Shown here: positions 17,062 through 42,412 of the stretch, piece after piece
Layout of the letters: each line of letters starts with the position of its first letter
Numbering within the stretch: position 1 is the stretch's first letter
Assembly: GCA_016182565.1 (NCBI GenBank)
Contig: JACPGI010000002.1
Location: 1 to 42,587, forward strand
Reading direction: 5' to 3'
DNA: 42,587 nucleotides
Origin: a candidate division WWE3 bacterium
Lineage (GTDB): Bacteria; Patescibacteriota; WWE3; UBA101185; UBA10185
Notes under the pieces: model-generated
The model's database searches: none
What the model saw: only the letters and a program-made list of their open reading frames with translations
What the model was told of the DNA's origin: nothing
Translations under genes and position numbers: made by a program

Positions 17062-17715
17062 ATGACTAATAAACTAAATGAAAATAAAATAAGTTCTTCA
17101 AAAATGCTTTCAAAAGGCATTGGTTTTGCATCAGCCTTAACCATTCTAGCTTTGTCTTTTAACGGTTTAGCTTTTGCTGACTGTGAACCAGATGGAGCAT
17201 ACGGTCAAATCTGTACTTATACAAAGGAGTTTGAAATCGATAAACAAGTAAGATTTGTAGGCGATGATGACTGGAAAGATAAAATTGTTGGTGTTAAAGA
17301 AGGCCAAAAGTTTGAATTTAAGGTGTCTATCAAAAATAACGGCGAGGTAGACGTAGATAGTATGAAGATGATTGATTTCTTGCCAGACGAAATTGAAAGA
17401 ATTAGTGGAGATGAGTTAGTAGAGTACTGGGAGAACTTTGAATCTGGCGAAAGAAAGAACTTTGTCTTTGAGGCTAAGGTAAGAGATGTTGAATATGATA
17501 AGAAAAACTTTGAAAAGTGTGTTGTAAACAAAGCCGAAGCTTACTACTCAGATAATGAGATAGGTTCTGCTACAGCTGTTGTCTGTTATGGTGATTCACA
17601 ACCAAAAGAACTTCCAAAGACCGGCCCAATTGATAACGGTTTGTTAGGTATCTTAGGACTTGTTTCTACCGGTTTAGGTCTTTCTTTGAAATCACTTCTT
17701 AAAAGAGCCAAGTAA
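17062..17715 (+). CDS. Secreted LPXTG sortase substrate with DUF11-like Ig domain
   Basis: Signal peptide (..LAFA|D), FKVSIKNNG..DFLP motif, C-terminal LPKTG + TM + basic tail. Confidence 0.85.
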   Translation: MTNKLNENKISSSKMLSKGIGFASALTILALSFNGLAFADCEPDGAYGQICTYTKEFEIDKQVRFVGDDDWKDKIVGVKEGQKFEFKVSIKNNGEVDVDSMKMIDFLPDEIERISGDELVEYWENFESGERKNFVFEAKVRDVEYDKKNFEKCVVNKAEAYYSDNEIGSATAVVCYGDSQPKELPKTGPIDNGLLGILGLVSTGLGLSLKSLLKRAK

Positions 17716-17780
17716 ATAAGATTTTGCACCTGATTTGTCTTGTACATTTAATCTTTACCTTTGCGCCTTAGGGCCTAAGG

Positions 17781-17824
17781 TAGAGTAGCTGGGTTTGCCT
17801 TGTCTTACGCGGCTACTCTATTTT
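17781..17824 (+). terminator. Hairpin with T-tract after the LPXTG gene
   Basis: TAGAGTAGC / GCTACTCTA followed by TTTT; preceded by the small hairpin CCTTAG-GGC-CTAAGG. Confidence 0.5.
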
Positions 17825-17909
17825 GGGTCTTAATGTTTTTTTAGCGAGACCCAATATTCCAGATGTGCACTCTACAAGGTTACAAAAGGTTTATTATGAA
17901 AGAACGTAT

Positions 17910-18581
17910 ATGAAAACATATAATCTAGCCCTATTTGTGGTTTCAGGGGTTACAATAGCTTCTACAATTTTTGCCGTTAAACAAGGCATATTACCTGATT
18001 CCAAAATGTTCTTACCAGACTACTTAACTAAAAAAGGTGCTACTTTGGGTGTAGAAGATGCTTCTAATATTTTAATTGATGAGGAATTTAACGCTAAGAC
18101 CCTAGCTTTTTCAGACCTTTCAAAGCCTATTTACTATACCCCAAAGAAATTAGAGTTTTTAGGTGCCACAATAGATATAGAGGAAGTAAACTTAACTCCC
18201 GATGAAACCTTAGAAGCTCCAGAAAGTTGGTTTACAGCTGGTTGGTATACACAAAGCTCTAAGACAGGGGAGGCAGGTAACTTAATAATAGACGGCCACT
18301 ATGATACAAACACAGGTACCCCTGCAGCTTTTTGGGGATTGAAAAACTTAAAAGTAAATGATACAGTCACTTTGAAAGATTCGATGGACAAAGACTTCGT
18401 GTATAAAGTCCGTAGTGTTTTTTACGTTGACATTCAAGATCCCGATCGAACACTTATATTCGAGGAAACTCACAAGAAAGAATTGACTCTTATTACTTGT
18501 GGTGGGGTATGGGATACCGCTAAGCATACTTACGATAAAAGACTTATTGTAAAAGCAGACCTTGTTTCTGATCAGATTTAA
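17910..18581 (+). CDS. Class F sortase
   Basis: N-terminal TM, IDGHYD (His), LTLITCGG (Cys), KRLIV (Arg); ATG 17910 preferred as start. Confidence 0.9.
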   Translation: MKTYNLALFVVSGVTIASTIFAVKQGILPDSKMFLPDYLTKKGATLGVEDASNILIDEEFNAKTLAFSDLSKPIYYTPKKLEFLGATIDIEEVNLTPDETLEAPESWFTAGWYTQSSKTGEAGNLIIDGHYDTNTGTPAAFWGLKNLKVNDTVTLKDSMDKDFVYKVRSVFYVDIQDPDRTLIFEETHKKELTLITCGGVWDTAKHTYDKRLIVKADLVSDQI

Positions 18582-22909: not shown

Positions 22910-22985
22910 GGGCCGTTAGCTTAGTTGGTAGAGCGCTTCCATGGCATGGAAGAGGTCAGCGGTTCGACTCCGCTACGGTCCACCA
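22910..22985 (+). tRNA. tRNA-Ala(GGC)
   Basis: 76-nt cloverleaf, G3:U70 pair, anticodon loop ATGGCAT (A32-U38), TTCGA loop, encoded CCA. Confidence 0.97.
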
Positions 22986-25403: not shown

Positions 25404-26081
25404 CTACTGAGCTATAAACCAGTTAAAAGTTGCATCTTGAGATGTAGCCGCATCCAGCTCTAAATAAAATCCTTGGTTGTCAATTTTTTTGCTAACCCAA
25501 TATTTTGAGGCTGGTGTAAAACTACTTTCAAAGGTAACGCTAATTCTTGACTCTTGGGTAACGATAGAGGAGGGTATAAAAAATGTTTTCTGACGCGCTG
25601 GAATAAAACTTGTACCAGTCTCAAGAATCCTAGCCGGAAGACTCTGGGATCGAATTTGATTTAATAGGTTTTGTTTTGCATTCAAGCCCCCAGAAAAGAT
25701 TCCAAGCTCCAAAAGGATAGTGCCAAGTATTAGAAAAAACGTCAAATATACTACTGTACTTGTCCTTTTCTCGGGTGTATCGAGAAACGAGAAGATTTTT
25801 CTGATGTTTTGTTTTGCCTCCACAGATTTAAGTGCTTTTTCTATTTGTTCATTTGTTTTTCCTGATGCTTTAAGACTTTCTATAAGCTCAAGTCTATTAA
25901 TCGACCAGTTTGGGTAATGGCCTACGACCTCACTATTTTCATTTTTCATTCTTTCCATATGAGGAAGCCATCCAATTTTTGTGTAATATCTTAATCTGTT
26001 GTACGGATTACCCTTACCCAAATTAATACCATTACTTTTTGCTGTTTCTATAAGTTTCTCAGCTGAAATGTATAAAGACAT
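25404..26081 (-). CDS. MerR-like HTH, single TM and C-terminal beta domain
   Basis: RLRYYTKIGWLP HTH wing motif; one hydrophobic helix; C-terminal YWVSKK..GFYLEL..FNWFI segment. Confidence 0.75.
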   Translation of the reverse strand: MSLYISAEKLIETAKSNGINLGKGNPYNRLRYYTKIGWLPHMERMKNENSEVVGHYPNWSINRLELIESLKASGKTNEQIEKALKSVEAKQNIRKIFSFLDTPEKRTSTVVYLTFFLILGTILLELGIFSGGLNAKQNLLNQIRSQSLPARILETGTSFIPARQKTFFIPSSIVTQESRISVTFESSFTPASKYWVSKKIDNQGFYLELDAATSQDATFNWFIAQ

Positions 26082-26106
26082 GATTCGATTATAGCATGGG
26101 GTATTT

Positions 26107-26121
26107 TCTAGTATTACTAGA
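26107..26121. promoter_or_regulatory. Palindromic candidate operator in the divergent merR-like/dprA region
   Basis: TCTAGTA-T-TACTAGA. Confidence 0.5.
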
Positions 26122-26170
26122 TACCTATGGGTTTCTTTAGAGTTTGTATTTTGCTAGTTTTGATTTTGGT

Positions 26171-27127
26171 ATGCAAGGCTTTAATTCTGATTATATCTGT
26201 ATAAAAGATCCAAGATTTCCCCCAAGTCTAGCTTTGACACCAGATTGTCCCGTAGGTGTATATTTTAAGGGTAATTTGGATTTAGGTAAGTTACAAAAGT
26301 CTCTGGCTATAGTGGGAACAAGGCGTTGCTCTAGGTATTGTACTGAGGTGTTAAAGCTTTTTATGCCCGAACTTACCCTAAATAAAGTTACTATAGTATC
26401 CGGGTTTATGTATGGGGTTGATTACGAGGCTCATTCCATTTGTTTAGATTTTGATGGATACACTGTTGCAGTACTACCGTTTGGCATTGATTTTTGTCCC
26501 ACATCCTATATGACAAGTTTATACAATCGAATTCTTACTCACGGGGGCTTAATTATATCGGAGTATCCGGAAAAACATCCTCCGGAGAAATGGACATTTA
26601 TTGCAAGAAACCGTATTGTTGCCGGATTATCAGCGGGAGTGGTTATTGTAGAGGCTGCACTAAAAAGTGGTTCCATCATAACTGCTCGTAAAACTTTAGA
26701 ATATGGTGGTAAAGTATGTGCCATACCTGGCTCAATTACAGCAGATACTTCAAAAGGTACAAATGAGCTTATAAAGATGGGCTTAGATGGCAATGCAGTT
26801 ATTCCAGTAAATCAAGTTTCAGATATTTTTGACACCTTTTCTTTCAAATGGGGTTTAAAAGAAGAAAGACTAAGTGATGAAATTGTCTTTAGACATAAGA
26901 ATTTAAGTGGCTTAATCACCAACAAGGGTCCAAACGACTTACATGTTTCACAAGTTGAAAGAAATCTTTTACAAAGCATCAAATTAAACTCCGGGTTGAC
27001 TTTTGAGGAAATATTAGAGCAGCACTTTAATGACAATAATTCTGAACTAAGCCTGATTTACTATCTTACCAAGTTACAAATACAGGGTTTTATAGAAGAG
27101 GGTGGGGGAAGGTACTATGCTTGTTAG
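26171..27127 (+). CDS. dprA: DNA-processing protein DprA, lacking the N-terminal SAM domain
   Basis: LAIVGTRR, IVSGFMYGVD, FIARNRIVAGLS, VVIVEAALKSGS motifs; start uncertain (TTG 26144 or ATG 26171). Confidence 0.93.
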   Translation: MQGFNSDYICIKDPRFPPSLALTPDCPVGVYFKGNLDLGKLQKSLAIVGTRRCSRYCTEVLKLFMPELTLNKVTIVSGFMYGVDYEAHSICLDFDGYTVAVLPFGIDFCPTSYMTSLYNRILTHGGLIISEYPEKHPPEKWTFIARNRIVAGLSAGVVIVEAALKSGSIITARKTLEYGGKVCAIPGSITADTSKGTNELIKMGLDGNAVIPVNQVSDIFDTFSFKWGLKEERLSDEIVFRHKNLSGLITNKGPNDLHVSQVERNLLQSIKLNSGLTFEEILEQHFNDNNSELSLIYYLTKLQIQGFIEEGGGRYYAC

Positions 27128-28763
27128 AGTAAACTCTATTATATTAAATGGTATTGACCCGGTGCGGGTAATTGTGGAAGTAAATATTACAGGCCGGGGA
27201 TTTCCAAGTTTTGACATTGTTGGTATGGCCGGTAAAAGTGTTCAAGAGAGTAAAGAAAGGGTTCGAAGTGCTTTAATAGCATCCGGATATGATTTTCCTC
27301 AGAAAAAAGTATTAGTTAATTTAATGCCCGCCGACTTGCCCAAAGATGGCACCTGCTTAGACTTCCCAATTGCAGCTGGGATTTTGGCTTGCGTTTACGG
27401 ATATAAACTTCCAAAGAACGCTTTGTTTTATGGTGAATTAGCATTAGGTGGGGAGTTAAACTATACAAAAGGCTGCTTTAATCTGGGTTTGATGCTTTTG
27501 ACTCAAGGCGAAGTAACTACAGTAGCTTTTATTCCTACCAAATCTGTAAAGGAAATGGAACATTTAGATGGGGTTTTATTTTTTCCTACCTCTAATCTAA
27601 AGGAATTAGGTGATTTTCTTGAAGGTAAGACTACTTTTTCATCTAGAGTGGGTAAGTTAAAAGGGAGTTCATTAACAAACACATTGCAAGATAAAAAAAT
27701 TTGTGGTCAAGGCAAAGTAATGAACTTGACCAAGGAGATTAAGTCTGATTTTGAAATTGACATAGCTAGTATCAAAGGTCAAAAAAGAGCAAAAAGAGCG
27801 CTTCTAATAAGCTTATCCGGTAAACACAACATTCTTTTTATAGGAAGCCCCGGATGCGGAAAAACTATGCTTGCAAGAAGCATCCCACCCTTACTACCTA
27901 AGCTTTCTTATACTGATAGTTTAGAAGTTACACGCATTTATTCCGGCAGTGGATTTATGGACGGTAAGTATGGTCTGGTAGAAATTCCTCCTTTTAGAAG
28001 CCCACACCATACAAGCTCAGTAGCAGGTATTATTGGTGGTGGTAACAGGTTTAAAGTGGGCGAAATTAGCCTCGCCCATAAGGGAATTCTTTTTTTAGAT
28101 GAATTACCGGAATTTAGTTTACAAGTGCTTGATGCTTTAAGGCAGCCTCTTGAGACAAAGACAATTAGTCTAATTAAATCAGGATATAGTGTTTTGGTTC
28201 CCACAGATTTTGTTTTAGTAGCAACAGCAAATCCGTGCCCTTGTGGTTATTTTGGAGACCGGTCTCATAAGTGTATTTGTGGGTTACCCCAACGCCAAAG
28301 GTATTTTAGTAGGATTTCAGGTCCATTACTTGATCGTATTGATATCGTTGTTCCTATTTTTTCTTCAAATGAGGCGGACTTTGTTAATAATTTTTCTAGC
28401 CCAATTGCCCCGACATCTAACCAAGAGTTAGATACCACACTGAAATTACAAGAAGTTATAGCAAAAGTGCAAAGTTTACAACGCGATAGAATGTTAGGTG
28501 CTGAAAAACATATCCTTGGAATCACCGTTGGAATAGATAATAATAAAAACAAGAGTAAATATTATACTCTAAACAAAAATATTATAAAACTTTTGGAACA
28601 AGCTTCCACTAAATTCAACCTATCTATAAGATCACAAACAAAAGTAATAAAATTAGCAAGAACTATTGCCGACGTCGAGGAGAAAGTTGAAATAGAGGTA
28701 AGTCACATTTTAGAAGCTATAAGTTATCAGACATCATATTTGTCATTTTTTCCAAATTCTTAG
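27117..28763 (+). CDS. comM: ComM/YifB Mg-chelatase-like AAA+ helicase
   Basis: Lon-like N-domain (FDIVGM..ESKERVRSA), GSPGCGKT, FRSPHHTSS, LFLDELPEF, NPCPCG; ATG 27117 overlaps the dprA end. Confidence 0.93.
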   Translation: MLVRVNSIILNGIDPVRVIVEVNITGRGFPSFDIVGMAGKSVQESKERVRSALIASGYDFPQKKVLVNLMPADLPKDGTCLDFPIAAGILACVYGYKLPKNALFYGELALGGELNYTKGCFNLGLMLLTQGEVTTVAFIPTKSVKEMEHLDGVLFFPTSNLKELGDFLEGKTTFSSRVGKLKGSSLTNTLQDKKICGQGKVMNLTKEIKSDFEIDIASIKGQKRAKRALLISLSGKHNILFIGSPGCGKTMLARSIPPLLPKLSYTDSLEVTRIYSGSGFMDGKYGLVEIPPFRSPHHTSSVAGIIGGGNRFKVGEISLAHKGILFLDELPEFSLQVLDALRQPLETKTISLIKSGYSVLVPTDFVLVATANPCPCGYFGDRSHKCICGLPQRQRYFSRISGPLLDRIDIVVPIFSSNEADFVNNFSSPIAPTSNQELDTTLKLQEVIAKVQSLQRDRMLGAEKHILGITVGIDNNKNKSKYYTLNKNIIKLLEQASTKFNLSIRSQTKVIKLARTIADVEEKVEIEVSHILEAISYQTSYLSFFPNS

Positions 28764-28848
28764 TGTTTTATATTTTAAAAGTTTACTAAGGCATAATCAG
28801 AACCAAACCAAAGTTTCTTCAAATCCTGTACCATTTTTAGTAAGGGAT

Positions 28849-29732
<884 letters not shown>

Positions 29733-29760
29733 TTTTTAATAGGTATGGGAAAATGTTTAC

Positions 29761-30507
29761 ATGCACTTACTGCCCCCCGATTCGGTGTTTAATTTAACAA
29801 TTCTTTTTATATTCATAATCTTTTTGTTAGGTTTTGCAGTTTTACTAGCTTCGATCTATGGTTTTTTATCAAAATGGCTCAGACTTTTAAAAGAAGATGA
29901 AATTTCAGGTGCCACAGCAATAAAGCAGAATTCGTATAAACAGGCTGCTGAGATACTTGATAAGGCGAGAAAAGAATCGCTAAAAATAATTGCTGAAACA
30001 AATATGAGATCTCGTGATGTTCTTGGCCTAATTGACAATTTGGCTAAAGAGTCTAAAAGAAGCCTTAACCTTTCACTTGATACATTGGCAGCAAAACACG
30101 AGGAAGCACTCCAAAAAACTTCAAATGAACTTCTTTCCAACTACCAAGACATTATTGAAAAACAAAAACAAGAGAGCATTTCTGTTTTGGATAAAGTTTC
30201 TTCTAATATTGAAAAAAATGCGGATTTACAGGTAGATGAGTTTGAGGATGCTCTTGAAAGAAAAACAATAGAGGTGGAGAAGTTGGTTGAAGATAAGTTA
30301 GATGCTTCCTATAAGAAGGTTGAAGGTGAAATTGCAGTATTTAGGGATGCACAGCTCAAAAAAGCTACTGAGTCAATCTATGACATACTTCACCAGGTTT
30401 CTATAAAAGTTTTTGGGAAAGTTCTAAGTGTGGAGGATCACGAGGATATTGTTATGCAAGCTTTAAACGACGCTAAGAACGGTAATTTTTTTAAACCTAC
30501 TAATTAA
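29761..30507 (+). CDS. atpF: F-type ATPase subunit b-like, elongated (248 aa)
   Basis: N-terminal TM, long coiled coil, b-like C-terminus (VSIKVFGKVLSVEDHEDIV); operon position. Confidence 0.72.
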   Translation: MHLLPPDSVFNLTILFIFIIFLLGFAVLLASIYGFLSKWLRLLKEDEISGATAIKQNSYKQAAEILDKARKESLKIIAETNMRSRDVLGLIDNLAKESKRSLNLSLDTLAAKHEEALQKTSNELLSNYQDIIEKQKQESISVLDKVSSNIEKNADLQVDEFEDALERKTIEVEKLVEDKLDASYKKVEGEIAVFRDAQLKKATESIYDILHQVSIKVFGKVLSVEDHEDIVMQALNDAKNGNFFKPTN

Positions 30508-30513
30508 AATCGC

Positions 30514-31023
30514 ATGAACTTAGCTATTAAAATTCAAAACACCCAAAATTTGCAGAGATTAAAGATGCTTGCTTCAGGTTTAAAAAGTAAGTTAGTGGGG
30601 GACAGTTTAGCAAGAAATAAAGTCACCCTTGAAAAAAATCTCGGTGAATTTTTCCCTATTTTTGAAGATTTTGTTTCTTCCGACGCGTTGAATACACCAA
30701 AGGATCTAAATCAACCTAGTATTTCTGCTATTAATAAGCTATACGCAAGTAATAGCCTGGCCATAATAGATAATTTTCTGTTATACCTTAATTCTATTAG
30801 TGTATTAGATTTAACGCTGGCTTTTAATCCCACTCCCAAGTTTTTACAGGAGGTACTGTTTTGGCTTAACAAGAACGTATCAAATAATATAGTTTTAAAG
30901 GTAAATTACCAGGAAGATATAGTAGCTGGCGCACTTATTACTTACAATGGCAAATATGGAGATTTTTCAACGAGGAACAAATTAGATGCCTTATTTAATC
31001 ACACTCAGGAACTAAAGATATGA
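30514..31023 (+). CDS. atpH: F-type ATPase subunit delta-like
   Basis: C-terminal EDIVAGALITYNGKYGDFS resembles the delta motif (LIGG..I..GD..ID.S); operon position. Confidence 0.75.
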   Translation: MNLAIKIQNTQNLQRLKMLASGLKSKLVGDSLARNKVTLEKNLGEFFPIFEDFVSSDALNTPKDLNQPSISAINKLYASNSLAIIDNFLLYLNSISVLDLTLAFNPTPKFLQEVLFWLNKNVSNNIVLKVNYQEDIVAGALITYNGKYGDFSTRNKLDALFNHTQELKI

Positions 31024-32582
31024 CAAGTTTATATGCTCCACACAGATTTAATGAGTATTTAGAAAAAACTGGTGAGATAGGTAGCGTTACTATGTTAGCC
31101 TATCCGTTGGTGTATGTTGACGGTTTACCTTCAGCCTTTCCTCAAGAGGTAGTTATGTTTGAAACTGGCGAGATAGGTCAGGTAGTTTCTAGTAGCCCAT
31201 CATATGTTGAAGTGCTAGTTTTTTCTTCTGAGGCTGTAAGGACAGGAACAAAAGTCACTAGAACAGGAAGGAGTCTTGAAATACCAGTAGGAGATGCTCT
31301 TCTTGGAAAATTGGTTGATCCACTTGGCAAGTCATTGCATAAATTAAAACCAATAGGCTTAATTAAAGATTTTAGGCAGGTTGAAATAGCACCTCCCGGT
31401 ATTGAGGTTAGAGCAAAAATTACTGAAACCTTAGAGACCGGCGTAACAATTGTTGATATGATGGTGCCACTTGGAAAAGGCCAAAGAGAGCTTGTTATAG
31501 GAGACAGAAAAACCGGCAAAACAAATTTTCTTCTTCAAACAGTTTTAAATCAAGCAAAGAAAGGCACAATTTGTGTTTATGCTGCAATTGGAAAGAAGAA
31601 AACAGATATTAAGCACGTTGAGGCGTTTTTCGAGAAAAACAATCTAACTGACAAGACATTGATTGTAGCTTCCTCATCCACCGATTCCGCGGGTATTATC
31701 TACATGACGCCATACTCAGCTATGACAATTGCTGAATATTTTAGAGATCAGGGAAAAGAGGTGCTTATAATTTTGGATGATCTTTCCACCCACGCTAAAT
31801 TTTATAGGGAGATATCGCTTTTGGGTAAGAATTTTCCTGGTCGTAGTTCCTATCCGGGGGATATCTTTTATACCCATAGTAGACTTATAGAGAGAGCGGG
31901 GAATTTCAAAACTGCCAATGGAACTGTTGCTATAACTTGCCTTCCGGTTGCAGAAACGGTAGAGGGTGATATTTCCGGTTATATTTCAACAAACCTTATG
32001 TCAATGACTGACGGACACATTTATTTTGATAGAGATTTATTTGCTCAAGGACGTCGTCCGGCGATAAATATATTTGCATCAGTGACAAGGGTAGGTAGGC
32101 AAACTCAAACAACAACTCGTTCTGGTATTTTTAGAGAATTAAATAGCTTTCTTTCCCTCCACGAAAAGACTCAAAGCTTTATCCATTTTGGTGCAGAGCT
32201 TAGTGAAGGTGTAAAAACAACGCTAACGATGGGTGAGAGAGTCTTAGACTTTTTTAATCAATCACCGGATAGGATTTTAACTATAGAGCTACAAATCATG
32301 TTATTTTGTTTAATTTGGATAGGTACTTGGAACAAGTACGGTAAAGAACAGGTAAGAGTAGAACTAGAGAAGATAATATCAACTTATAAGCGAAGCAAAA
32401 CAACCCAAGACCTATTTTCAAAGTATGTTTGGGAGGCTTCGGATTTTAACTCTCTTTTGGGAAAGTTAAGTGTAGACGGTAATAAGATTATGGATACTTT
32501 GGAGGCAGCGTTTATTGCTAGTGGTTCTGATAGTAGTAATGTGACAGATATTCAAATTATTCCTGGATTAATAGATAGGTAG
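31020..32582 (+). CDS. atpA: F1 subunit alpha
   Basis: GKGQRELVIGDRKTGKT, PGRSSYPGDIFYTHSRLIERAG, TDGHIY, SVTRVG (arginine finger). Confidence 0.95.
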   Translation: MTSLYAPHRFNEYLEKTGEIGSVTMLAYPLVYVDGLPSAFPQEVVMFETGEIGQVVSSSPSYVEVLVFSSEAVRTGTKVTRTGRSLEIPVGDALLGKLVDPLGKSLHKLKPIGLIKDFRQVEIAPPGIEVRAKITETLETGVTIVDMMVPLGKGQRELVIGDRKTGKTNFLLQTVLNQAKKGTICVYAAIGKKKTDIKHVEAFFEKNNLTDKTLIVASSSTDSAGIIYMTPYSAMTIAEYFRDQGKEVLIILDDLSTHAKFYREISLLGKNFPGRSSYPGDIFYTHSRLIERAGNFKTANGTVAITCLPVAETVEGDISGYISTNLMSMTDGHIYFDRDLFAQGRRPAINIFASVTRVGRQTQTTTRSGIFRELNSFLSLHEKTQSFIHFGAELSEGVKTTLTMGERVLDFFNQSPDRILTIELQIMLFCLIWIGTWNKYGKEQVRVELEKIISTYKRSKTTQDLFSKYVWEASDFNSLLGKLSVDGNKIMDTLEAAFIASGSDSSNVTDIQIIPGLIDR

Positions 32583-32586
32583 TTGT

Positions 32587-33456
32587 ATGGCGGCAACAAA
32601 GAACATATTGGAAGAAATTCAAAACTTAAAAAATGTTAGAAACATGGTATTAACTTACGAAGAGATTGCCGCCACAAGGATGCAACGTGTTAAAACCTCG
32701 GTTCTTATTAACCGCGAATTCTTAGCCAGTCTTTATTCTATATATCAGCATGTTAAGTACTCCTACGATAGGGAAGTTAAAGTGCCAAAGTATTTTAAAA
32801 AGACGCTATCTTCGAAGATAATCCCAAGAAACGGCAAGACTGTATCTGTTTTTCTATCTTCGAATACAGGCCTTTATGGGGATATTATAAAAGACACCTT
32901 TGACCTTTTTGTAAAATCAATTCAAGATAAAAAGACGGATATTGTGGTTGTGGGTAGGGTGGGGCAGAGGTTATTTGACCACGTAAAGAAAGCTCTAAAT
33001 ATGACAAACTATCAGTATTTTGAGCTATCAGACAGTTCATCAAACCCAGAGGATTTCATTGATATTATTTCCTATGTTGTAGATTATGAGCAGGTGATTG
33101 TTTATCACGGTCAATTTCAAAGTATTTTATCCCAAATACCCAAGGAGGAGTACTTAACAGGAGATCTCCCAAAATCCGAACTTAAATTTGTGGAGAATGC
33201 CCACTATATATTTGAGCCTTCGTTGGAAAAGATACTCAGTTTCTTTGAATCCGAAATTATGGCTTCAATTTTTGAGCATAGTTTACATGAGTCAAGTCTT
33301 AGCAAATACGCATCTAGAATGATAAATTTGGATCACGCGGTCTCTAACATAAGCGAAAAACTTAAACGAGCAAAATTTATTGAACAAAGTTCGCGACATA
33401 GGGTAGTAAATAAAAAGCAAGCCGAGCTCCTTTCTGGTATGTCACTTTGGGGCTAG
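32587..33456 (+). CDS. atpG: F1 subunit gamma
   Basis: N- and C-terminal helices, SSNTGLYG, SKYASRMINLDHA, KKQAELL; position between alpha and beta. Confidence 0.9.
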   Translation: MAATKNILEEIQNLKNVRNMVLTYEEIAATRMQRVKTSVLINREFLASLYSIYQHVKYSYDREVKVPKYFKKTLSSKIIPRNGKTVSVFLSSNTGLYGDIIKDTFDLFVKSIQDKKTDIVVVGRVGQRLFDHVKKALNMTNYQYFELSDSSSNPEDFIDIISYVVDYEQVIVYHGQFQSILSQIPKEEYLTGDLPKSELKFVENAHYIFEPSLEKILSFFESEIMASIFEHSLHESSLSKYASRMINLDHAVSNISEKLKRAKFIEQSSRHRVVNKKQAELLSGMSLWG

Positions 33457-33459
33457 TAA

Positions 33460-34959
<1,500 letters not shown>

Positions 34960-34974
34960 AAGGTCTAATAACCT

Positions 34975-35250
34975 ATGATTCCTAACATTCTTAGAGAGAC
35001 TAATAAAAATATATCTGTAGTAATAAAAAGTCGAAAAAGAACTTATTATGAAGGGCAAGCGTTATCCTTAAGCTCAGTAAATGAAAGTGGGCCTTTTGAT
35101 GTTTTGCCATCTCATGCTAATTTTATTACTACAATTAGGGACTATATAAAGCTAATTATCGATGAAAACAATGCCCAAGATTTTGCAATTAAAGAGGGAG
35201 TATTACGGGCATATGAGGATGAGGTAAGTGTGTATTTAACTGTAGCATAG
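34975..35250 (+). CDS. atpC: F1 subunit epsilon, N-terminal beta-sandwich only
   Basis: GPFDVLPSHANFIT motif; ends without the C-terminal helical hairpin. Confidence 0.85.
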   Translation: MIPNILRETNKNISVVIKSRKRTYYEGQALSLSSVNESGPFDVLPSHANFITTIRDYIKLIIDENNAQDFAIKEGVLRAYEDEVSVYLTVA

Positions 35251-35352
35251 AGTATTTGTATCCATTTCTTCCCCCTACCAACCTATATGTTTTGTAGAAT
35301 ATAACAACGTACATTAGTTGAATTATTCCAATTTACATTGTATATTCCAAGC

Positions 35353-35652
35353 ATGGTTAATATTTTAAACGTTTCGAAGGCAATGTCTGATAAAAATAGA
35401 ATAAAGATCATGCAGATGCTAAGTGAAGGTGAGAACAATGTTAGTGATGTTGCTGACAATTTAAACGTTGAGGAAAATTTAGCCTCGCATCACTTAAGAG
35501 TTTTATCGGGTTTGGGTTTTTTGAAGAGTAACAAGAAGGGTAGGGAGGTTTTTTATAAATTAAACAAGGCAAAGCTTGTTACATTAGTCAAAGATTTAAA
35601 AAGAAACCCGGCTTTTCTTGAGATTCTAAAAGAAGCAGTTTCCGGCGACTAA
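35353..35652 (+). CDS. ArsR/SmtB-family regulator
   Basis: KAMSDKNRIKIMQML..NVSDVA..ASHHLRVL..GREVFY; ATG 35353 follows TTGAAT-17-TATATT by 6 nt. Confidence 0.88.
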   Translation: MVNILNVSKAMSDKNRIKIMQMLSEGENNVSDVADNLNVEENLASHHLRVLSGLGFLKSNKKGREVFYKLNKAKLVTLVKDLKRNPAFLEILKEAVSGD

Positions 35653-35825
35653 AATCGTTTAGTTTTTTTGTAGTATTAGCACAATTTAGAACATAATATA
35701 TCCAATTTTCTCAAATTAGTATCAATATCAACTTAAAGATGCTACCTGATTTTATTTCCTGTACCCACAGTTTTAGTAGATTTAGCATTGTAATTCATTG
35801 TAAATCAGTGTTTTATACCAATTAA

Positions 35826-35908
35826 GTTAATATGCGGTAAATATTTTATAGGAGCTGCTGTGGTAGCAAATAGCAATAGTGTATTTCTGGTTAATATGCG
35901 TTAAATAT
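35826..35908. repeat. 19-bp direct repeat pair upstream of comEA
   Basis: GTTAATATGCG(G/T)TAAATAT at 35826-35844 and 35890-35908. Confidence 0.7.
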
Positions 35909-35980
35909 CCAAAAGGTTTTTCTATTGCTACTAGAAGTTAATACGAAAATACAAACCTGTAACCGGCTTAAAATACCCTT

Positions 35981-36733
35981 ATGCTCGAAGACTTAGTTTT
36001 TAAAATAAAGGAGAGAAGACCCAATCTTTTTACTATATTGTCTTGTGTGCTCTTATTAGCTATTTTTTTAGCTTATTATTTTGTTATTAAGGATGATACT
36101 TTGTTGGGTAAGGTGATAGGCAGTAAAGTCGATGATCTAGGACAAAACACTACCCCAAGTGCCAACGAAACTACTGTTACCAAAAATGAGGCAGAGAAAA
36201 TTTATTGTGAGATTACTGGAGCTGTAAATGAACCTGGCATGTGTTCATTGGATTCTGGTAGTAGAGTATTTGATTTACTCAATTGTGGTAAGGGGTTTAG
36301 TAAGTTTGCAAACCATACTTGGATAGCGCAGAACCTTAATATGTCTCAAAAAATTAAAGATGAATGTAAGGTTTATGTACCATTCACATGGGATAGTATT
36401 CAGGAACCTAGCAAGGTTGCCCATTTCATGAATATAGATGAAACTAATGTTAAAGTAGTTTCAAATAGCACTCCGGATAAAAAACCCACTGAAAGTTATA
36501 AATCTACTCAAGCTATATCAATAACACCCATACCAGCTAATAGTACACCTTCAACTCCTATTAACGTTAATAACTGTAGTAAAGATGCCCTTCTATCTTT
36601 AAAAGGTATAGGTAATATCTATGCCACTCGAATTATTGATAATAGACCATATATAGATATTGAGGAGCTAAAGACCAAGGCTAAATTATCTGAGAGCCTT
36701 GTTTCTAGTATAAAGAGTTTAATAACCTTCTAA
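35981..36733 (+). CDS. comEA: ComEA DNA receptor (TM, SLBB, HhH)
   Basis: CEITGAVNEPG SLBB motif; ININNCSKDALLSLKGIG..ATRIIDNRPY HhH motif. Confidence 0.9.
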   Translation: MLEDLVFKIKERRPNLFTILSCVLLLAIFLAYYFVIKDDTLLGKVIGSKVDDLGQNTTPSANETTVTKNEAEKIYCEITGAVNEPGMCSLDSGSRVFDLLNCGKGFSKFANHTWIAQNLNMSQKIKDECKVYVPFTWDSIQEPSKVAHFMNIDETNVKVVSNSTPDKKPTESYKSTQAISITPIPANSTPSTPINVNNCSKDALLSLKGIGNIYATRIIDNRPYIDIEELKTKAKLSESLVSSIKSLITF

Positions 36734-36737
36734 GTAC

Positions 36738-37766
36738 ATGCTAGGTCTTGCTTCTAAGTTTAATATCACCACCGTACTAAGATATAAAAGTCTTTGTATA
36801 TTGTGTTTTATTTGGATACTGCTATTAAACTTAAATATAGACCCAGCTCAAAAAATAGGGGATTGGAGTAAGGCTAGCTATCTAATTGACACCTTCAGTA
36901 ATGTACAACAGAATCGATTTTATACTATTTTTGAAAGATATTTACCTAGTCCTCAGTTAGAATTTTTCTTAGGTATTGTTTTAGGGTCAGATACAATCAA
37001 ATTCTTTTCTAGATTTAACGACGTCACTCTTTCAGCAGGCATGATGCACGCAATTGTGGCCTCTGGCTACAATATTAACTTAGTATTTACTTTTTTATTT
37101 AAAATACTTGGGACTAAATATAATCTTTATTTTTTAATTATCGCTCAGGTAGTTGCATTAATTTACGCATTTTTAACCGGGTTTAACGTGCCAATAATCA
37201 GAGCCATTCTGATGGTGTCTGTCATACATTGGACTACATACTTGGGGTATAGAAGTTCGGGGCTAGCCTTGATTCTTAAGGTAGCTTTACTGATGCTAGT
37301 ATTGTCCCCCAAGCTGTATAAAAACTTAAGCTTTCTTTACACAGTATTTGCCACAACTGGCTTAGTACTGGCATCGAAACTGCCAAAAGCTCCCAGTGTG
37401 TTGTTTGAGCTTTTTCAGGTATCTCTTATGGCGCAGCTTTTAATACTGCCAGTTGGTTTTGTGAAATTCGGAACATTAAACATAGTTGGTTTGCTAAGCA
37501 CGGTCTTACTTAGTTTTGTTGTATCTTTAATCACTGTTTCTGGGTTCATTAGTGTATTGATTAGTTATTTGTGTCCAAAGATAGTAAAATTCATTCTTAT
37601 TCCCATAAATTTATTACTAACTTTATTCGCTTATACATGTGAAATAATAGGAAGATATAACACTATAAGTGTATCTATAAGTATTTATATACTTTGTATC
37701 TTAATTATTGTATTAATTGTGTCTCCAATTTTAAAATTTAGAAAACAACAGATTTATGATAAATAA
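36738..37766 (+). CDS. comEC: ComEC/Rec2 competence membrane domain
   Basis: GIVLG, MMHAIVASGYNI, PIIRAILM motifs; many TM helices; follows comEA. Confidence 0.85.
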   Translation: MLGLASKFNITTVLRYKSLCILCFIWILLLNLNIDPAQKIGDWSKASYLIDTFSNVQQNRFYTIFERYLPSPQLEFFLGIVLGSDTIKFFSRFNDVTLSAGMMHAIVASGYNINLVFTFLFKILGTKYNLYFLIIAQVVALIYAFLTGFNVPIIRAILMVSVIHWTTYLGYRSSGLALILKVALLMLVLSPKLYKNLSFLYTVFATTGLVLASKLPKAPSVLFELFQVSLMAQLLILPVGFVKFGTLNIVGLLSTVLLSFVVSLITVSGFISVLISYLCPKIVKFILIPINLLLTLFAYTCEIIGRYNTISVSISIYILCILIIVLIVSPILKFRKQQIYDK

Positions 37767-38616
37767 AATGTATGTCCTTTTAACTACCGGAGCCTTCTTA
37801 GTGTTAGGTAGTTTTTATTTTCCCGCCTTGTCGCAAAAAACCGGTTTAATCTTGCACTTTTTAGATGTGGGCAATGGTGATGCCATAGCGATCACGCAGG
37901 AAGCTAATGTCCTTGCTGTGGTAGATGGCGGTCCTGATTATTATTCTGATTATTTTTTGTCGCGCTACTTTCCCCTTCTTAACTGTAATATTAAATATAT
38001 GTTTTTGACCCACCCCCACGCAGATCATTTGAAAGGTTTGACTAGAATGCTTAGTCATTGTGAAGTTGAAAATGTGTATGAAAATAAAATTGGCTATACT
38101 TCAAAACTCTACGGATTTTGGCATAGTTTGTTAGATGGCAAAATAAGCTCTATTTCTAATCTTGTTTATAATACCGAATTTACATCTGGCAGCGTTGTTA
38201 GGCTAGATAATTTAAAAATCATTTCTTTATATCCAACAAAAGACATTGTTAAAGGCTTAGATACACGTGTAGCTAGTGCAAATGACGTATCTATGGTGTT
38301 ACTTATTGACTATCTGGACTTTGAAGCTCTTCTGATGGCAGACATAGAAGCAAAAAATCAAGAACTTATTGATTTTGATCTTTTAGATGTTTATCTGGAT
38401 GGGTCACTTGAGGTACTAAAAGTACCTCATCACGGTTCCAAAAATGCGTTAAACACATCTTTTTTTGATAAGTTGACAATAGATAAAGCTATTGTCACAA
38501 CGGGCCCAAATGATTACGGCCACCCATCCCCTACCGTACTTGACTATTTCACAAAACGTGGTGTTACCCTACTTCGTACAGATGTTGAAGGTGACATAGC
38601 AATATCCGTCCGTTAA
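37756..38616 (+). CDS. ComEC-type metallo-beta-lactamase nuclease domain, encoded separately
   Basis: LDVGNGDAI, THPHADH, NDVSMV, LKVPHHGS, YGHP, RTDVEG motifs. Confidence 0.88.
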   Translation: MINKMYVLLTTGAFLVLGSFYFPALSQKTGLILHFLDVGNGDAIAITQEANVLAVVDGGPDYYSDYFLSRYFPLLNCNIKYMFLTHPHADHLKGLTRMLSHCEVENVYENKIGYTSKLYGFWHSLLDGKISSISNLVYNTEFTSGSVVRLDNLKIISLYPTKDIVKGLDTRVASANDVSMVLLIDYLDFEALLMADIEAKNQELIDFDLLDVYLDGSLEVLKVPHHGSKNALNTSFFDKLTIDKAIVTTGPNDYGHPSPTVLDYFTKRGVTLLRTDVEGDIAISVR

Positions 38617-38668
38617 GACGGTGTTTTCTTATGTTGTCTAGTTGGATTGGTTGAGATATAGTTGCAGA

Positions 38669-40564
38669 ATGGATATTAAAGAGATCATAACTACAAATTT
38701 AAAGCAAATCATTAATGATATCTATAAGATTGATATTGCTAAAGAGGAAATTCAGCTAGAGCATCCGAACGATGATAAGTGGGGCGATTTATCGTGTAAT
38801 GTGTCTTTTAAAGTGGCAAAAGTTACTAAGCAGTCCACAATTGAAGTTGCCAAAAATCTAGCCTATGGGTTATTAAAAAATGATATTGTAGTAAAATTGA
38901 ACTCCGAGGAGGTTTCAGTATTTAAAAAAATAGATTTTCAAGCCCCTGGATTTGTTAATTTTACATATTCAGACTATTTCTTACTGTACAAGGCTTTGAA
39001 TGTAGATGAAAATTTAAAAAAAGATTCTCCAGAAAATAATATAGGGCTATTTAGAGGACAAAAAGTACTCTTTGAGTATACCGACCCAAATCCGTTTAAG
39101 GTGTTTCATATAGGTCATTTAATGAGTAATGCAATTGGGGAATCCTTAAGTCGCATCTATGAATATTTGGGTGCAGATGTGAAGCGAGTTAATTATCAGG
39201 GAGATGTTGGATTACACGTAGCAAAATCTATTTGGGGTATTTTAAAGATTTTTGATAGTGAAAAGGTCTTACTTACCGACTTAAAAAACAAGAGTCTTAA
39301 AGAGCGGGTGACTTTTCTTGGCCGCGCTTACGCTCTTGGAGCTTCGGCATATGGGGACGAGTTACAACCGGAAGCCAAAACACAAATGCATGAGCTTAAT
39401 TACCTTATCTATATTGCGGCTCAGGAAAGATTAGTTGAAGAGGAGAGTTGGATACCGGTGGTAGATTATAAAAAGTATTTACAGGACAGTAAAACATTTG
39501 ATTACCAGGTAGTGAAAGAACTTTATCATTTAGGTAGGCAGTGGAGCCTAGAGGATTTTGAACAGTTATACCAAGAACTTGGCACCAAGTTTGATTCCTA
39601 CTACTTTGAAAGTAAAGTTGGTGAATATGGTCTTGATATTGTGAATGCTCATATATCAGATGGGGTTTTCGAAAAGGACAATGGGGCGGTCATATTTAGA
39701 GGTGAAAAAGTAGGACTTCATAGTAGGGTGTTTATCAATTCAAAAGGACTTCCCACCTACGAAGCAAAAGATTTAGGACTCGCCTTCCTTAAATACGAGT
39801 TATTTAAGTATGACAAATCATTTATTGTCACTGCAAATGAGATAAATGAGTATTTTAAGGTCGTACTTAAAGCAATGGGTATGTTTAGCCTGGAACTTAC
39901 AAAAAAGACAACCCATATCGGGCACGGAGTACTACGCTTAACCACCGGTAAGATGTCATCAAGAACTGGTGAGGTACTTACGGGAGTAGGTTTGATTAGG
40001 GAAACTAAAGAAGAGATAATGCGGATAATGCAAGAAGTTGGAAGCGATCTTGACACTGATAAAAGAGAAGAAATAGCCACTCAACTTTCAGTTGGAGCTA
40101 TAAAATACAGTATATTAAAACAAGGTTTAGGAAAAGATATTATTTATGACAAAGATAGGGCAATAGCTATAACAGGGGATACGGGTCCTTATTTGCAATA
40201 TACCCATGCTAGGGCAAATTCACTTATTGAAAAAGCCGGTACCTGGGATTTTGATTTACAATCTATCAAATATGAACTTTCTGAGGGCAAGTTTACTGTT
40301 TCAGAGTTAGAGAGAAAAATACTTCGTTTCCTACTTCAGTTTGATGAAAAAGTTGTATATGCCATGAACAATTTGTCACCAAATCTTGTCTGTGATTATC
40401 TTTTTGAGTTGGCTCAAAGATTTAACACCTTCTATAATGAGATTCCAATACTGGCTTCTTTAAATAATGAAAGAAATTTCAGACTTTTGCTTACTAAAAG
40501 GTTACGAGACTCTCTAAAGACCGGCCTTTGGCTTTTGGGTATCGTTGCACCGGATAAAGTTTAG
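38669..40564 (+). CDS. argS: Arginine--tRNA ligase
   Basis: PNPFKVFHIGH (HIGH), GKMSSR, GPYLQYTHARA; ATG 38669 preferred. Confidence 0.97.
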   Translation: MDIKEIITTNLKQIINDIYKIDIAKEEIQLEHPNDDKWGDLSCNVSFKVAKVTKQSTIEVAKNLAYGLLKNDIVVKLNSEEVSVFKKIDFQAPGFVNFTYSDYFLLYKALNVDENLKKDSPENNIGLFRGQKVLFEYTDPNPFKVFHIGHLMSNAIGESLSRIYEYLGADVKRVNYQGDVGLHVAKSIWGILKIFDSEKVLLTDLKNKSLKERVTFLGRAYALGASAYGDELQPEAKTQMHELNYLIYIAAQERLVEEESWIPVVDYKKYLQDSKTFDYQVVKELYHLGRQWSLEDFEQLYQELGTKFDSYYFESKVGEYGLDIVNAHISDGVFEKDNGAVIFRGEKVGLHSRVFINSKGLPTYEAKDLGLAFLKYELFKYDKSFIVTANEINEYFKVVLKAMGMFSLELTKKTTHIGHGVLRLTTGKMSSRTGEVLTGVGLIRETKEEIMRIMQEVGSDLDTDKREEIATQLSVGAIKYSILKQGLGKDIIYDKDRAIAITGDTGPYLQYTHARANSLIEKAGTWDFDLQSIKYELSEGKFTVSELERKILRFLLQFDEKVVYAMNNLSPNLVCDYLFELAQRFNTFYNEIPILASLNNERNFRLLLTKRLRDSLKTGLWLLGIVAPDKV

Positions 40565-40607
40565 CATTTGGTAATATATTAAGGCTTTTTAGTTTATAAT
40601 TAGATTG

Positions 40608-41777
40608 ATGACCAAGATTTCAGATATTACAAATGACACCTCTTCAGCTAGAAGACCAAGGCCTACCGGGCTTGGTTTTATTAGAGCTGTATTTTCTGTA
40701 ATTGTTATCTCTATTTTTATATTAGCTCTAGTTTTTTTTGTTAAACAGGCAACTTTGGTTGATACTTCAAATCTAAATACCTTGATAAACACCGTTTTTA
40801 GTCAATTTGGGTATGAGAACTCACGAATCGGTAAGGTCGCGGGGGATATTATTGAAAGGGTGGGCGATGTAGGTTTAGAAAACGAGCACGAATTAAATAT
40901 TAATTCAAATGATAACGGGGGGAATTTGCCAGGTACAAATGACATACCAGGAGATATAACTTCCGCCTCAACTTCCCGAAAAGAAGTAAGCAATATAGAT
41001 AATATAGTGCTAAGAGTCGCTATTGCCTCTGATGTCCACCTGAGTAAATCCGAAAGTATTTATGGGCCAAACAAAGGTTATCTTGCGTCTTTGTTTGACA
41101 TAATAAAAACTAAGAATATTGACACCCTTTTATTTCTTGGGGACCTTACAAACTATGGAGACTTGGAGTCTTTGCAGCTGGGTAAAGAGATGCTTCAAGA
41201 TGCTGGATTAAAATACAAAGTAATACCGGGGGATAGAGATCTTGCCGCATCTGTAGGTATAGCCAACTTTACGAATGTTTTTAACTCCCATAATTATGTT
41301 TTTGAATCAGATGGTTACAAATTTGTGATGCTTGACAACAGTGCAAACTATACATTAATCCCGCAAGAAACACTTGATTGGTTTGATAAGCAGTTGAACG
41401 GGGCTGATTTTGTCCTTTTATCCCAACCTTTATATACGGAAGGGTTAACAATGTTTAGTAACGTGTATATGGGAAGTACATTAAGTTCTCCGGAAGATAC
41501 AAATTTAATCGCAAAGCAGGAAGAGGTAAAAACCCAAAGGAACTTAATCCTGTCGTTAATAAGGGCTTCAGAAGTAAAGGCTGTTATTGCCGGAGATCAT
41601 CACAAATCAAGTAAAGTTATTGATAAAATAAAACCTAGTTTGACACATTTTGTCGTTGGTGCAGTCGGTGGAAATGTTAATGAATACTCTCAGAAGTCTT
41701 TACAATCTCAGAGATTTTCTATACTCGAGGTGTATAAAGATGGTAGTTTTGCGCTTATCGACACCTTAATAAATTAA
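40608..41777 (+). CDS. Membrane-anchored calcineurin-like metallophosphoesterase
   Basis: N-terminal TM; SDVH, GDLT, GDRD (GNH variant) and GDHH motifs. Confidence 0.8.
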   Translation: MTKISDITNDTSSARRPRPTGLGFIRAVFSVIVISIFILALVFFVKQATLVDTSNLNTLINTVFSQFGYENSRIGKVAGDIIERVGDVGLENEHELNINSNDNGGNLPGTNDIPGDITSASTSRKEVSNIDNIVLRVAIASDVHLSKSESIYGPNKGYLASLFDIIKTKNIDTLLFLGDLTNYGDLESLQLGKEMLQDAGLKYKVIPGDRDLAASVGIANFTNVFNSHNYVFESDGYKFVMLDNSANYTLIPQETLDWFDKQLNGADFVLLSQPLYTEGLTMFSNVYMGSTLSSPEDTNLIAKQEEVKTQRNLILSLIRASEVKAVIAGDHHKSSKVIDKIKPSLTHFVVGAVGGNVNEYSQKSLQSQRFSILEVYKDGSFALIDTLIN

Positions 41778-41830
41778 AGTAAAAGCAAAGTTCTATAGAC
41801 TGCCTTTTATCTTTCTGCTAAGATCCAATA

Positions 41831-42412
41831 ATGATAGAAAGATCTTTAGTTTTAATGAAGCCCGACGCAGTAAAAAGGGGTATTGTTGGGGAAATTTTAC
41901 AACGTTTTGAGCGCATGGGTTTAAAAATTGTTGGTATGAAAATGCTTCACCCCGAAAAATCTTTTGTAGAAAAACACTATTCGACTTCAGACGAAAACTT
42001 AACTGTAATGGGTAATAAGTCTATTGAAGATGCAAAAGAAAACAATATAGACTTAATGAGGACTCTTGGGACAACTGATCCCTTGGTTATAGGGAAAAAT
42101 ATCTGGAGTTGGTCGGTTGAGTTTTTATCATCGGGGCCAGTCATTGCTGTCGTTTTTGAAGGGCCTCACGCTATAGCTAACATAAGATCACAAGTAGGAC
42201 ATACACTGCCATTAAAATCTGTTCCGGGTACAATAAGGGGTGATTATGGTATGGACTCGTCATACAGCGGTAACAGTAGGGGACGAACAATTTACAATTT
42301 AGTACATGCATCTGGTACTAAGGCAGAAGCCGAGTTTGAAATAAACCTTTGGTTTAAACCAGATGAAATTTTGGTTTATAAACGAGTTCATGATGATCTT
42401 TATGGTTACTAG
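41831..42412 (+). CDS. ndk: Nucleoside diphosphate kinase, long form
   Basis: LMKPDAVKRG, PGTIRGD, NLVHAS (catalytic His). Confidence 0.95.
   Translation: MIERSLVLMKPDAVKRGIVGEILQRFERMGLKIVGMKMLHPEKSFVEKHYSTSDENLTVMGNKSIEDAKENNIDLMRTLGTTDPLVIGKNIWSWSVEFLSSGPVIAVVFEGPHAIANIRSQVGHTLPLKSVPGTIRGDYGMDSSYSGNSRGRTIYNLVHASGTKAEAEFEINLWFKPDEILVYKRVHDDLYGY

Follow-up and report, generated by a model that had tools for sequence, protein, structure and literature searches.

A stretch of 42,587 nucleotides (nt) from a candidate division WWE3 bacterium (assembly GCA_016182565.1, contig JACPGI010000002.1, positions 1 to 42,587 of the forward strand; hereafter the window) raises the question of why a seven-gene operon for an atypical rotary ATPase should lie among genes for natural DNA uptake. 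The locus can be read as three units standing side by side: dprA-comM; the X-type ATPase operon, whose first gene is X; and arsR-comEA-comEC(split)-argS-mphos-ndk, mphos being a metallophosphoesterase gene. DprA loads RecA onto incoming single-stranded DNA, ComM/YifB is a Mg-chelatase-like AAA+ helicase of transformation and ComEA is a membrane-anchored DNA receptor, whose gene precedes comEC in the Bacillus comE operon as it does in the window. A preliminary description of the sequence proposed that the ATPase may power DNA capture or import, adding the caveat that the adjacency may be incidental. Comparison with related genomes bears out the caveat: the arrangement is probably inherited synteny of separately promoted units within a larger block of mixed function, with no mechanism shared between them. 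The features of the locus are as follows.

25404-26081, reverse strand: gene for a MerR-type helix-turn-helix (HTH) protein of 225 amino acids (aa) with one transmembrane helix and a short outer part, divergent from dprA (Pfam MerR_1, E 1.6e-5)
26144-27127, forward strand: dprA (PF02481, E 3e-62; TIGR00732, 198 bits against a cut-off of 191)
27102-28763, forward strand: comM/yifB (PF01078, PF13541, PF13335; TIGR00368, 411 bits against a cut-off of 362)
28764-28967, forward strand: comM-X spacer with a TATAAT box at 28889-28894, from the sequence; no terminator detected
28968-29732, forward strand: X; signal peptide, outer domain (about 180 aa) and C-terminal subunit-c-like hairpin (hidden Markov model, HMM, of canonical c)
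29761-30507, forward strand: b-like stalk protein with an N-terminal transmembrane helix and a coiled coil, from the sequence
30514-31023, forward strand: delta/OSCP-like protein (weak OSCP match, E 0.002; OSCP called in relatives)
31020-32582, forward strand: alpha (Pfam, NCBIfam)
32587-33456, forward strand: gamma (Pfam, NCBIfam)
33499-34959, forward strand: beta (Pfam; NCBIfam atpD, 472 bits against a cut-off of 463)
34975-35250, forward strand: epsilon, eps (Pfam, NCBIfam)
35251-35337, forward strand: eps-arsR spacer, with a predicted, conserved arsR promoter, TTGAAT-N17-TATATT, at 35318-35346 (scan; conservation)
35338-35652, forward strand: arsR/smtB-family regulator (HTH_5; NF033788 above cut-off)
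35653-35980, forward strand: arsR-comEA spacer with two copies of TTAATATGCG(G/T)TAAATAT, at 35827 and 35891, from the sequence
35981-36733, forward strand: comEA (HHH_3, 34.7 bits against a gathering threshold of 27; weak SLBB; weak TIGR01259)
36738-37766, forward strand: open reading frame (ORF) for the Competence channel domain of ComEC (PF03772; TIGR00360)
37756-38616, forward strand: ORF for the metallo-beta-lactamase (MBL) domain of ComEC (PF00753; TIGR00361 positions 420-663)
38642-42412, forward strand: argS, mphos and ndk, the remainder of the conserved comEA-comEC block (Pfam)
4127-5464, forward strand: radA/sms (TIGR00416, E 1.6e-162; Pfam)

The window is contig C7 of a metagenome-assembled draft genome (G000; 0.80 Mb, 10 contigs, 96% complete) obtained from groundwater metagenomes. 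From ORFs, Pfam and NCBIfam its gene order runs rho, M23 peptidase, obg, tRNA-Ala, Wzy/TPR and MerR-type HTH genes (both on the reverse strand), dprA, comM and the ATPase operon, followed by arsR, comEA, the Competence ORF and the MBL ORF of comEC, argS, the metallophosphoesterase gene and ndk. Every gene named in the preliminary description, from dprA to the MBL gene, is present in that order and on the forward strand, and radA lies elsewhere in the window as stated. Two details need amending: the coordinate at which the cluster was said to start, 25404, belongs to the reverse-strand MerR-type gene rather than to dprA, and what was taken for an MBL nuclease forms the C-terminal third of ComEC, which is split. 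The recognisable com set consists of DprA, ComM, ComEA and the ComEC channel and MBL domains (TIGR00732, TIGR00368, PF12836, PF03772/TIGR00360 and TIGR00361 positions 420-663).

Distribution and ancestry of the gene neighbourhood

The neighbourhood was compared in 401 genomes drawn evenly from the phylum and counted as GTDB species. Full-length X is found in about 48 of these, and 20 kb around the gene (from 6 kb upstream to 14 kb downstream) was fetched in 40. Neither dprA nor comM adjoins X at any of these 40 loci, which come from 19 other families; comEA or comEC lies inside the fetched stretch at five of them. comEA is within two genes of the operon in 4 of 45 GTDB species, and dprA is 10 kb or less from X in a single genome of 43, the window's own. 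The sample includes 12 further species of the window's GTDB family. In none of them is the operon at the com cluster; it is found between rplA-rplK-nusG and a divergently oriented giant gene, approximately 35-50 kb distant or on a separate contig. Their com genes follow the order M23-obg-wzy<merR<dprA>comM>arsR>comEA>comEC>MBL>argS>mphos>ndk, free of ATPase genes; it is complete in eight of the 12 (the MBL ORF being undetected in one), and in a ninth arsR and comEA are separated by a gap of 3.8 kb. dprA-comM-arsR is contiguous, with comM abutting arsR, in nine of the 12, and the remaining three have no dprA-comM at the com site.

Closer relatives were reached through a search of 5.8 billion proteins for X homologues, after which the contigs of these metagenomic relatives (designated by P numbers) were examined. 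Their X proteins are 55-78% identical to that of the window, those of the sampled family members only 40-49%. The order eps-arsR-comEA-comEC-MBL-argS is present in P0009, P0010, P0014, P0017 and P0023, and in P0008 and P0011 as far as the contigs reach (comEA or comEC); P0036 has arsR-leuS-comEA beside the operon, and P0029 is the only one of these relatives with the rplA layout. The upstream side is more varied: comM adjoins X in the two nearest relatives, P0003 and P0006, dprA lies directly upstream of X in P0017, and a giant gene with a MerR-type N-terminus occupies this position in P0008, P0014, P0023, P0029 and P0036.

In a tree of the alpha and beta subunits the window falls into an eight-member clade with 100/100 support, all eight members of which have the com layout. 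Elsewhere on the tree this layout is found in P0036, G081 and G260 (as leuS-comEA-comEC) and, inverted, in G200; it is therefore present in 12 of 45 X-type operons, at five places, and at least five changes are needed to account for its distribution. The conservation of the adjacency across genomes, which the preliminary description had offered as the test of its proposal, is thus divided: the adjacency is kept throughout the window's own clade and recurs in four other lineages, but is missing from 33 of the 45 operons, including those of all 12 family species. As the same order, including the same intervening leuS, occurs in separate lineages, we infer an old layout that has been repeatedly broken, although several independent gains are also possible. 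In this part of the Patescibacteria the ATPase operon would originally have stood just upstream of an arsR/leuS-comEA block; the window's clade would have retained this layout and most other lineages would have broken it at the unit borders, with dprA-comM on the upstream side, which is variable. The breakpoints of the rearrangements fall between units, not within them.

Nor is the association specific to com genes. ComEC is encoded in 379 of the 401 genomes, X in about 48; ComEC is found in 45 of these 48, which is the background rate, and approximately 88% of ComEC-bearing sampled genomes have no X-type operon, so the uptake system is independent of the operon. ndk is found 25 kb or less from X in 10 of 38 genomes (nine families), as frequent a linkage as that of comEC (12 of 45, eight families); within 50 kb of X, recA was found in none of the 48 genomes. 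argS, leuS and the wzy/TPR gene recur as neighbours of the operon, argS and leuS standing beside it about as often as comEC, though for argS no whole-genome count of linkage was made. Furthermore, the operon abuts differing ends of the mixed block: the comEA/leuS end in G260, G081 and G200, the mphos end in G030 and the ndk/argS end in G380, G315 and G128. The step from comEC to argS is far more stable than that from the X-type operon to comEA, being retained at 16 of 18 fetched comEC loci (families f1, f2, f3 and f39), in 12 with the MBL ORF between the two genes and in four with argS directly after comEC. Judged by adjacency, ComEC would have a better 'partner' in argS than in the ATPase.

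This pattern resembles the gene-order blocks of mixed function known as 'uber-operons', in that the order rho-M23 peptidase-obg-wzy/TPR-...-comEA-comEC-argS-ndk is kept across families despite the unrelated jobs of its genes; it differs in that the ATPase operon joins the block in some lineages only, and at different ends (comEA, mphos or ndk). Between the operon and the com genes there is no neighbourhood conserved in most carriers, no co-occurrence beyond the background rate and no partner-specific linkage, as would be looked for in a single module.

Promoters and possible co-expression of the units

Taken on a single sequence, consensus scans of the window perform at the level of chance, with 40 promoter-like sites against 45.6 expected and seven terminator-like sites against 8.1 expected. 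Comparison between relatives is more informative. TCGACA-N17-TATAAT is conserved just before the X start codon in clade relatives, whatever the upstream gene (giant gene, dprA or other). Similarly, TTGAAT-N17-TGnTATATT is found about 10 nt before the arsR start codon in the window, seven clade relatives and 12 family members (more than 19 lineages), and is kept no matter which gene precedes it (eps, comM, the MerR-like gene or obg). Because conserved promoter motifs directly precede both X and arsR regardless of the gene before them, each of these genes is predicted to head a unit, in agreement with the preliminary description's caveat that the transcripts are separate. The hairpin which it placed after comM survives in part: a weak A+T-rich hairpin does span the comM stop codon, but it has no U-tract, and the terminator scan is at chance.

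The arsR-comEA region holds further candidate control elements. ArsR is the best conserved protein of the block, with 60-78% identity among relatives, and its gene is invariably upstream of comEA or leuS-comEA. The position of its promoter suggests that the arsR mRNA is probably leaderless, and a GAATnATTC palindrome over the -35 box could be an operator for ArsR itself. In the following spacer, the repeats TGCGG(T/G)AA(A/T) (35827-35844 and 35891-35908) often form two half-sites approximately 11 nt apart, at two places upstream of comEA. Seven clade relatives have related paired TGCGG(T/G)AA repeats in the corresponding spacer, which makes these repeats candidate sites for a putative regulator of comEA-comEC in this clade; none are found upstream of X. 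TGCGG(T/G)AA was also considered as the mark of a genome-wide competence regulon and rejected, as nearly all of its 37 loose matches lie inside ORFs and the intergenic ones are confined to the comEA spacer and one Fic-like gene.

Several observations weigh against the view that the units are merely inherited neighbours. Of 45 genomes, 12 have comEC no more than 25 kb from X, against approximately 5.5% by chance (binomial p ~4e-6, a value that overstates the significance since the genomes are related). Inside the window's clade the eps-arsR-comEA junction, kept in eight of eight members, equals the com block's own junctions in stability. With leuS interposed, this order is found again in P0036, G260 and G081, and G200 has it inverted. 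At least three or four lineages have come to carry dprA or comM as the gene immediately before X. As for the promoters, they are motif matches backed by conservation rather than mapped transcription starts; RNA sequencing runs were sought for the window and for G260, and none turned up. No terminator is found between eps and arsR, where the spacers are only 53-108 nt long, and read-through from the ATPase operon into arsR and the com genes may give co-expression.

One alternative reading is regulatory coupling without a shared mechanism, in which read-through into arsR-comEA-comEC, or control of both units by ArsR, would give co-expression within the clade. The short, terminator-free spacers, the constancy of the eps-arsR junction and the palindrome as a potential operator are all in keeping with this; however, the same arsR promoter is retained where no operon lies upstream, the TGCGG repeats of the comEA type do not extend to X, and family members in which the units are separated still possess both. 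Such coupling is unlikely. A stronger version, in which the retained position of the operon reflects a real connection, with read-through into the com block and an extracellular crown on the X ring acting at the ComEA/ComEC site of the envelope, for example in clearing or handling surface fibres or DNA before uptake, is quite improbable.

DNA uptake and the origin of the arrangement

It is highly improbable that the X-type rotary ATPase itself acts with ComEA and ComEC as a motor for DNA capture or import in place of ComFA, for instance in nucleotide scavenging. The idea draws on the lack of ComFA, no ComFA-like helicase being found in the whole genome, where the Helicase_C proteins are only a DEAD-box RNA helicase, UvrB, RecG and SecA; on the com genes that flank the operon on both sides in the window and P0017, and at least upstream in P0003 and P0006; on the loose linkage of X to comEC above chance; and on the outer domain that X displays where DNA would be met. 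Set against these are the roughly 88% of ComEC-bearing genomes that have no such operon, the 33 of 45 operons that are not beside com genes, the equally frequent linkage of ndk, the separate conserved promoters of the units and the giant surface-protein gene, which is a more consistent neighbour of X. Gene distribution and linkage therefore offer the proposed role no support. ComFA, the DEAD-box import ATPase of Bacillus and Streptococcus, holds the role envisaged for the operon, but is a cytoplasmic SF2 helicase-like motor working on single-stranded DNA, whereas nothing ties the rotary ATPase to DNA. To our knowledge, ComFA is largely confined to Firmicutes.

The preliminary description's claim of a missing import ATPase thus holds insofar as ComFA is absent genome-wide, but its premise of a 'missing motor' is weak, because the core com system of these bacteria consists of ComEC, DprA, ComFC and type IV pili (Cell 2023; PMC10633639) and is present here, a ComFC-like protein, PilB and PilT all being encoded in the genome. 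The text of that study never names ComFA. It reports comEC-dependent transformation in a cultured member of the phylum, in which the com genes are dispensable for growth; this argues against an essential nucleotide-scavenging role in that organism. Within the phylum only a cultured member has been shown to be transformable, and the bacterium of the window is uncultured.

Like the com system of other transformable bacteria, including Patescibacteria/Saccharibacteria (PMC10633639), that of the present genome comprises DprA, ComM, ComEA, ComEC, RadA, ComFC and pilus ATPases. It is unlike them in having no ComFA, in the division of ComEC into a channel ORF and an MBL ORF, in the ArsR-family regulator with a conserved promoter that heads the block, in the fixed order of argS, the phosphoesterase gene and ndk and, within the window's clade, in the unrelated seven-gene ATPase operon between comM and arsR. 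DNA uptake is predicted to proceed most likely as proposed for the phylum, through type IV pili (PilB, PilT), ComEA, the split ComEC and ComFC, followed by DprA, ComM, RadA and RecA.

The split of comEC, in which the two ORFs overlap by 11 nt, is identical across family and clade relatives; the product of the Competence-domain ORF, approximately 340 aa long, has no recognisable N-terminal OB domain. At the far end of the block, NDK (41831-42412) matches its Pfam model in two pieces, 1-53 and approximately 58-135, as it does in many relatives, which indicates a probable insertion of 30-40 aa common to many lineages of the phylum. radA is 23 kb upstream, in an unrelated neighbourhood (clpB and a PIN-TRAM gene). 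Rfam and a tRNA scan of the window yielded nothing beyond the tRNA-Ala at 22910 and a cut tRNA at the window end. A 983 aa ORF with no family match (13785-16736) is followed, after a gap of approximately 300 bp, by genes for a small LPXTG-anchored protein and a sortase (17062-18581).

With regard to origin, the GTDB sample taken alone had initially suggested that the operon was recently inserted, in this lineage alone, into an intact dprA-comM-arsR-comEA cluster: nine of the 12 family species have a contiguous dprA-comM-arsR and carry the operon between the giant gene and rplA, and contig C2 of G000 has that giant gene and rplA-rplK-nusG without an operon. This reading was withdrawn, and is now very doubtful indeed, as the closer relatives, with X 55-78% identical, have eps-arsR-comEA, the nearest two also have comM next to X, and the uniform, well-supported clade of the window shows the layout to be inherited within it. 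No repeats flank the operon: its two border spacers share none of at least 8 nt, and within approximately 400 bp of the borders there are one 10 nt direct and one 11 nt inverted match.

The notion of a clean empty site on C2 was likewise rejected, because the flanks are 4.4 kb apart, parted by GH57-like and glgA-like genes and rplJ-rplL. The GH57-like and glycogen-synthase-like genes occupy C2:1220-4004, between the giant gene and rplL-rplJ-rplA, and the same pair adjoins X in families f3 and f2 and in G164. A ComM-based search of genome and metagenome contig collections returned only matches of 37-38% identity, and those with names belonged to other phyla. The com-block proteins gave a tree that was at odds with taxonomy and placed G000 on a long branch; it was not used to infer direction.

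Lastly, a chimeric contig fusing the ATPase operon to the com genes can be discounted almost entirely, for although the genome is a metagenome-assembled draft in 10 contigs with a small variant bubble at 35242-35358, independent Logan contigs from two groundwater samples cover both operon junctions (comM-X and eps-arsR) at even depth (~20x and ~7.4x), a single one of 12.3 kb spanning 26000-35271 with further contigs overlapping onward, and the same order is found in at least nine independent contigs of other studies. The bubble in the eps-arsR region, in sample X1, is a minor variant (depth 5.4 against 20.4) with four substitutions and a 1 nt deletion at 35273, and is strain variation within the regulatory region.

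The X-type ATPase and giant surface proteins

The operon occupies 28968-35250 on the forward strand, its seven genes encoding X, b-like, delta, alpha, gamma, beta and epsilon proteins. Of the canonical F1Fo parts it thus contains F1 alpha, beta, gamma and epsilon, together with b and delta. The order X-b-delta-alpha-gamma-beta-epsilon is retained in approximately 35 of the 40 fetched loci, and the b-like and delta genes hold the same position in 28-30 of 41. X homologues at five loci have no adjacent F1 genes (G164, where the b-like gene is kept, G148, G170, G030 and G277); at these sites the operon may have decayed or been split. The start of X is most likely the ATG at 28968, because translation from it would give a signal peptide as in all homologues; a start at the TTG at 28869 is unlikely.

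X has no Pfam match, and the genome has no c subunit recognisable by Pfam. The C-terminal hairpin of X is nevertheless matched, in 34 of 39 homologues, by an HMM made from 12 of the phylum's canonical c subunits (E 3e-8 in G000; hhalign probability 96%). At the canonical ion-binding position of this hairpin none of 41 homologues has a glutamate or aspartate. An a subunit (PF00119) was not found in the whole 96%-complete genome; it is missing from 22 of 48 X-bearing genomes at E <= 0.01, and 23 of 48 have no match above the Pfam cut-off, so that an ion-coupled ATP synthase appears to be missing altogether from some of these bacteria. In 25 of the 48 a canonical a subunit is located elsewhere, and the full canonical atp operons fetched at 12 such loci have c subunits with the ion-binding glutamate or aspartate. 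The X-type unit would combine, then, an F1 head and stalk with a c-like rotor protein that has no carboxylate and bears an outer domain, in a genome with no a subunit. With 100/100 support, its alpha and beta subunits form a clade of their own beside their canonical counterparts in the phylum.

Two known groups of divergent ATPases invite comparison. The F1-like ATPases of Mycoplasma Types 2 and 3 (PMC3369863; for the gliding motor, PMC8406192 and PMC11864180) are likewise an extra cluster of F1 alpha, beta, gamma and epsilon genes with lineage-specific partners in bacteria with small genomes, often beside a canonical F1Fo operon, and in M. mobile are thought to perform mechanical work instead of making ATP. 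They differ from the present operon, whose proteins score 377-383 bits against the NCBIfam cut-offs of 520-850 (MSC_0618/0619, MMOB1660/1670), which still encodes b and delta as well as a c-like membrane hairpin joined to an outer domain, and whose alpha and beta subunits form a separate clade beside the canonical ones of Patescibacteria. N-type ATPases (PMC5376962) likewise represent a second, divergent F-type operon, as does the X-type operon, which coexists with the main one in about half of its carriers; however, N-type ATPases keep an a subunit and an ion-binding c ring, of which the window operon has neither, and the models for alternate F1F0 forms score below their cut-offs on its proteins.

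When all flanking ORFs were clustered without bias, the most recurrent non-ATPase neighbour of X proved to be a divergent gene for a giant surface protein, which lies immediately upstream of X in 22 of 40 loci (nine families) and in five metagenomic relatives. The outer domain of X also recurs within giant surface proteins. Most likely, the ATPase would serve the cell surface together with these proteins. In G000 itself, a homologue of the giant gene is situated away from the operon, at C2:2-904.

The MerR-like protein encoded upstream of dprA, in an order (MerR< DprA>) kept within the GTDB family, is related to the same class of protein, its residues 5-80 being 34-46% identical to the N-termini of giant proteins flanking X-type operons (families f116, f33 and f3). 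These giant proteins range from 400 to more than 2500 aa and have cytoplasmic N-termini; the attachment of a DNA-binding HTH to a giant protein outside the cell makes for an odd architecture. A BLAST comparison of the MerR-like protein with one giant protein of cluster 6 gave no match; the giant proteins that it does match belong to a different set.

It would be striking for a rotary ATPase to drive DNA through ComEC in Patescibacteria that have no ComFA. Were the operon truly coupled to ComEA and ComEC, it would constitute a rotary motor in the service of DNA acquisition, but gene order alone gives no support to such import. The locus provides leads of two other kinds: the conserved, probably leaderless arsR promoter and the paired TGCGG repeats before comEA are candidate competence control elements in this clade, and the giant surface proteins, rather than the com genes, are the likely partner of the ATPase.

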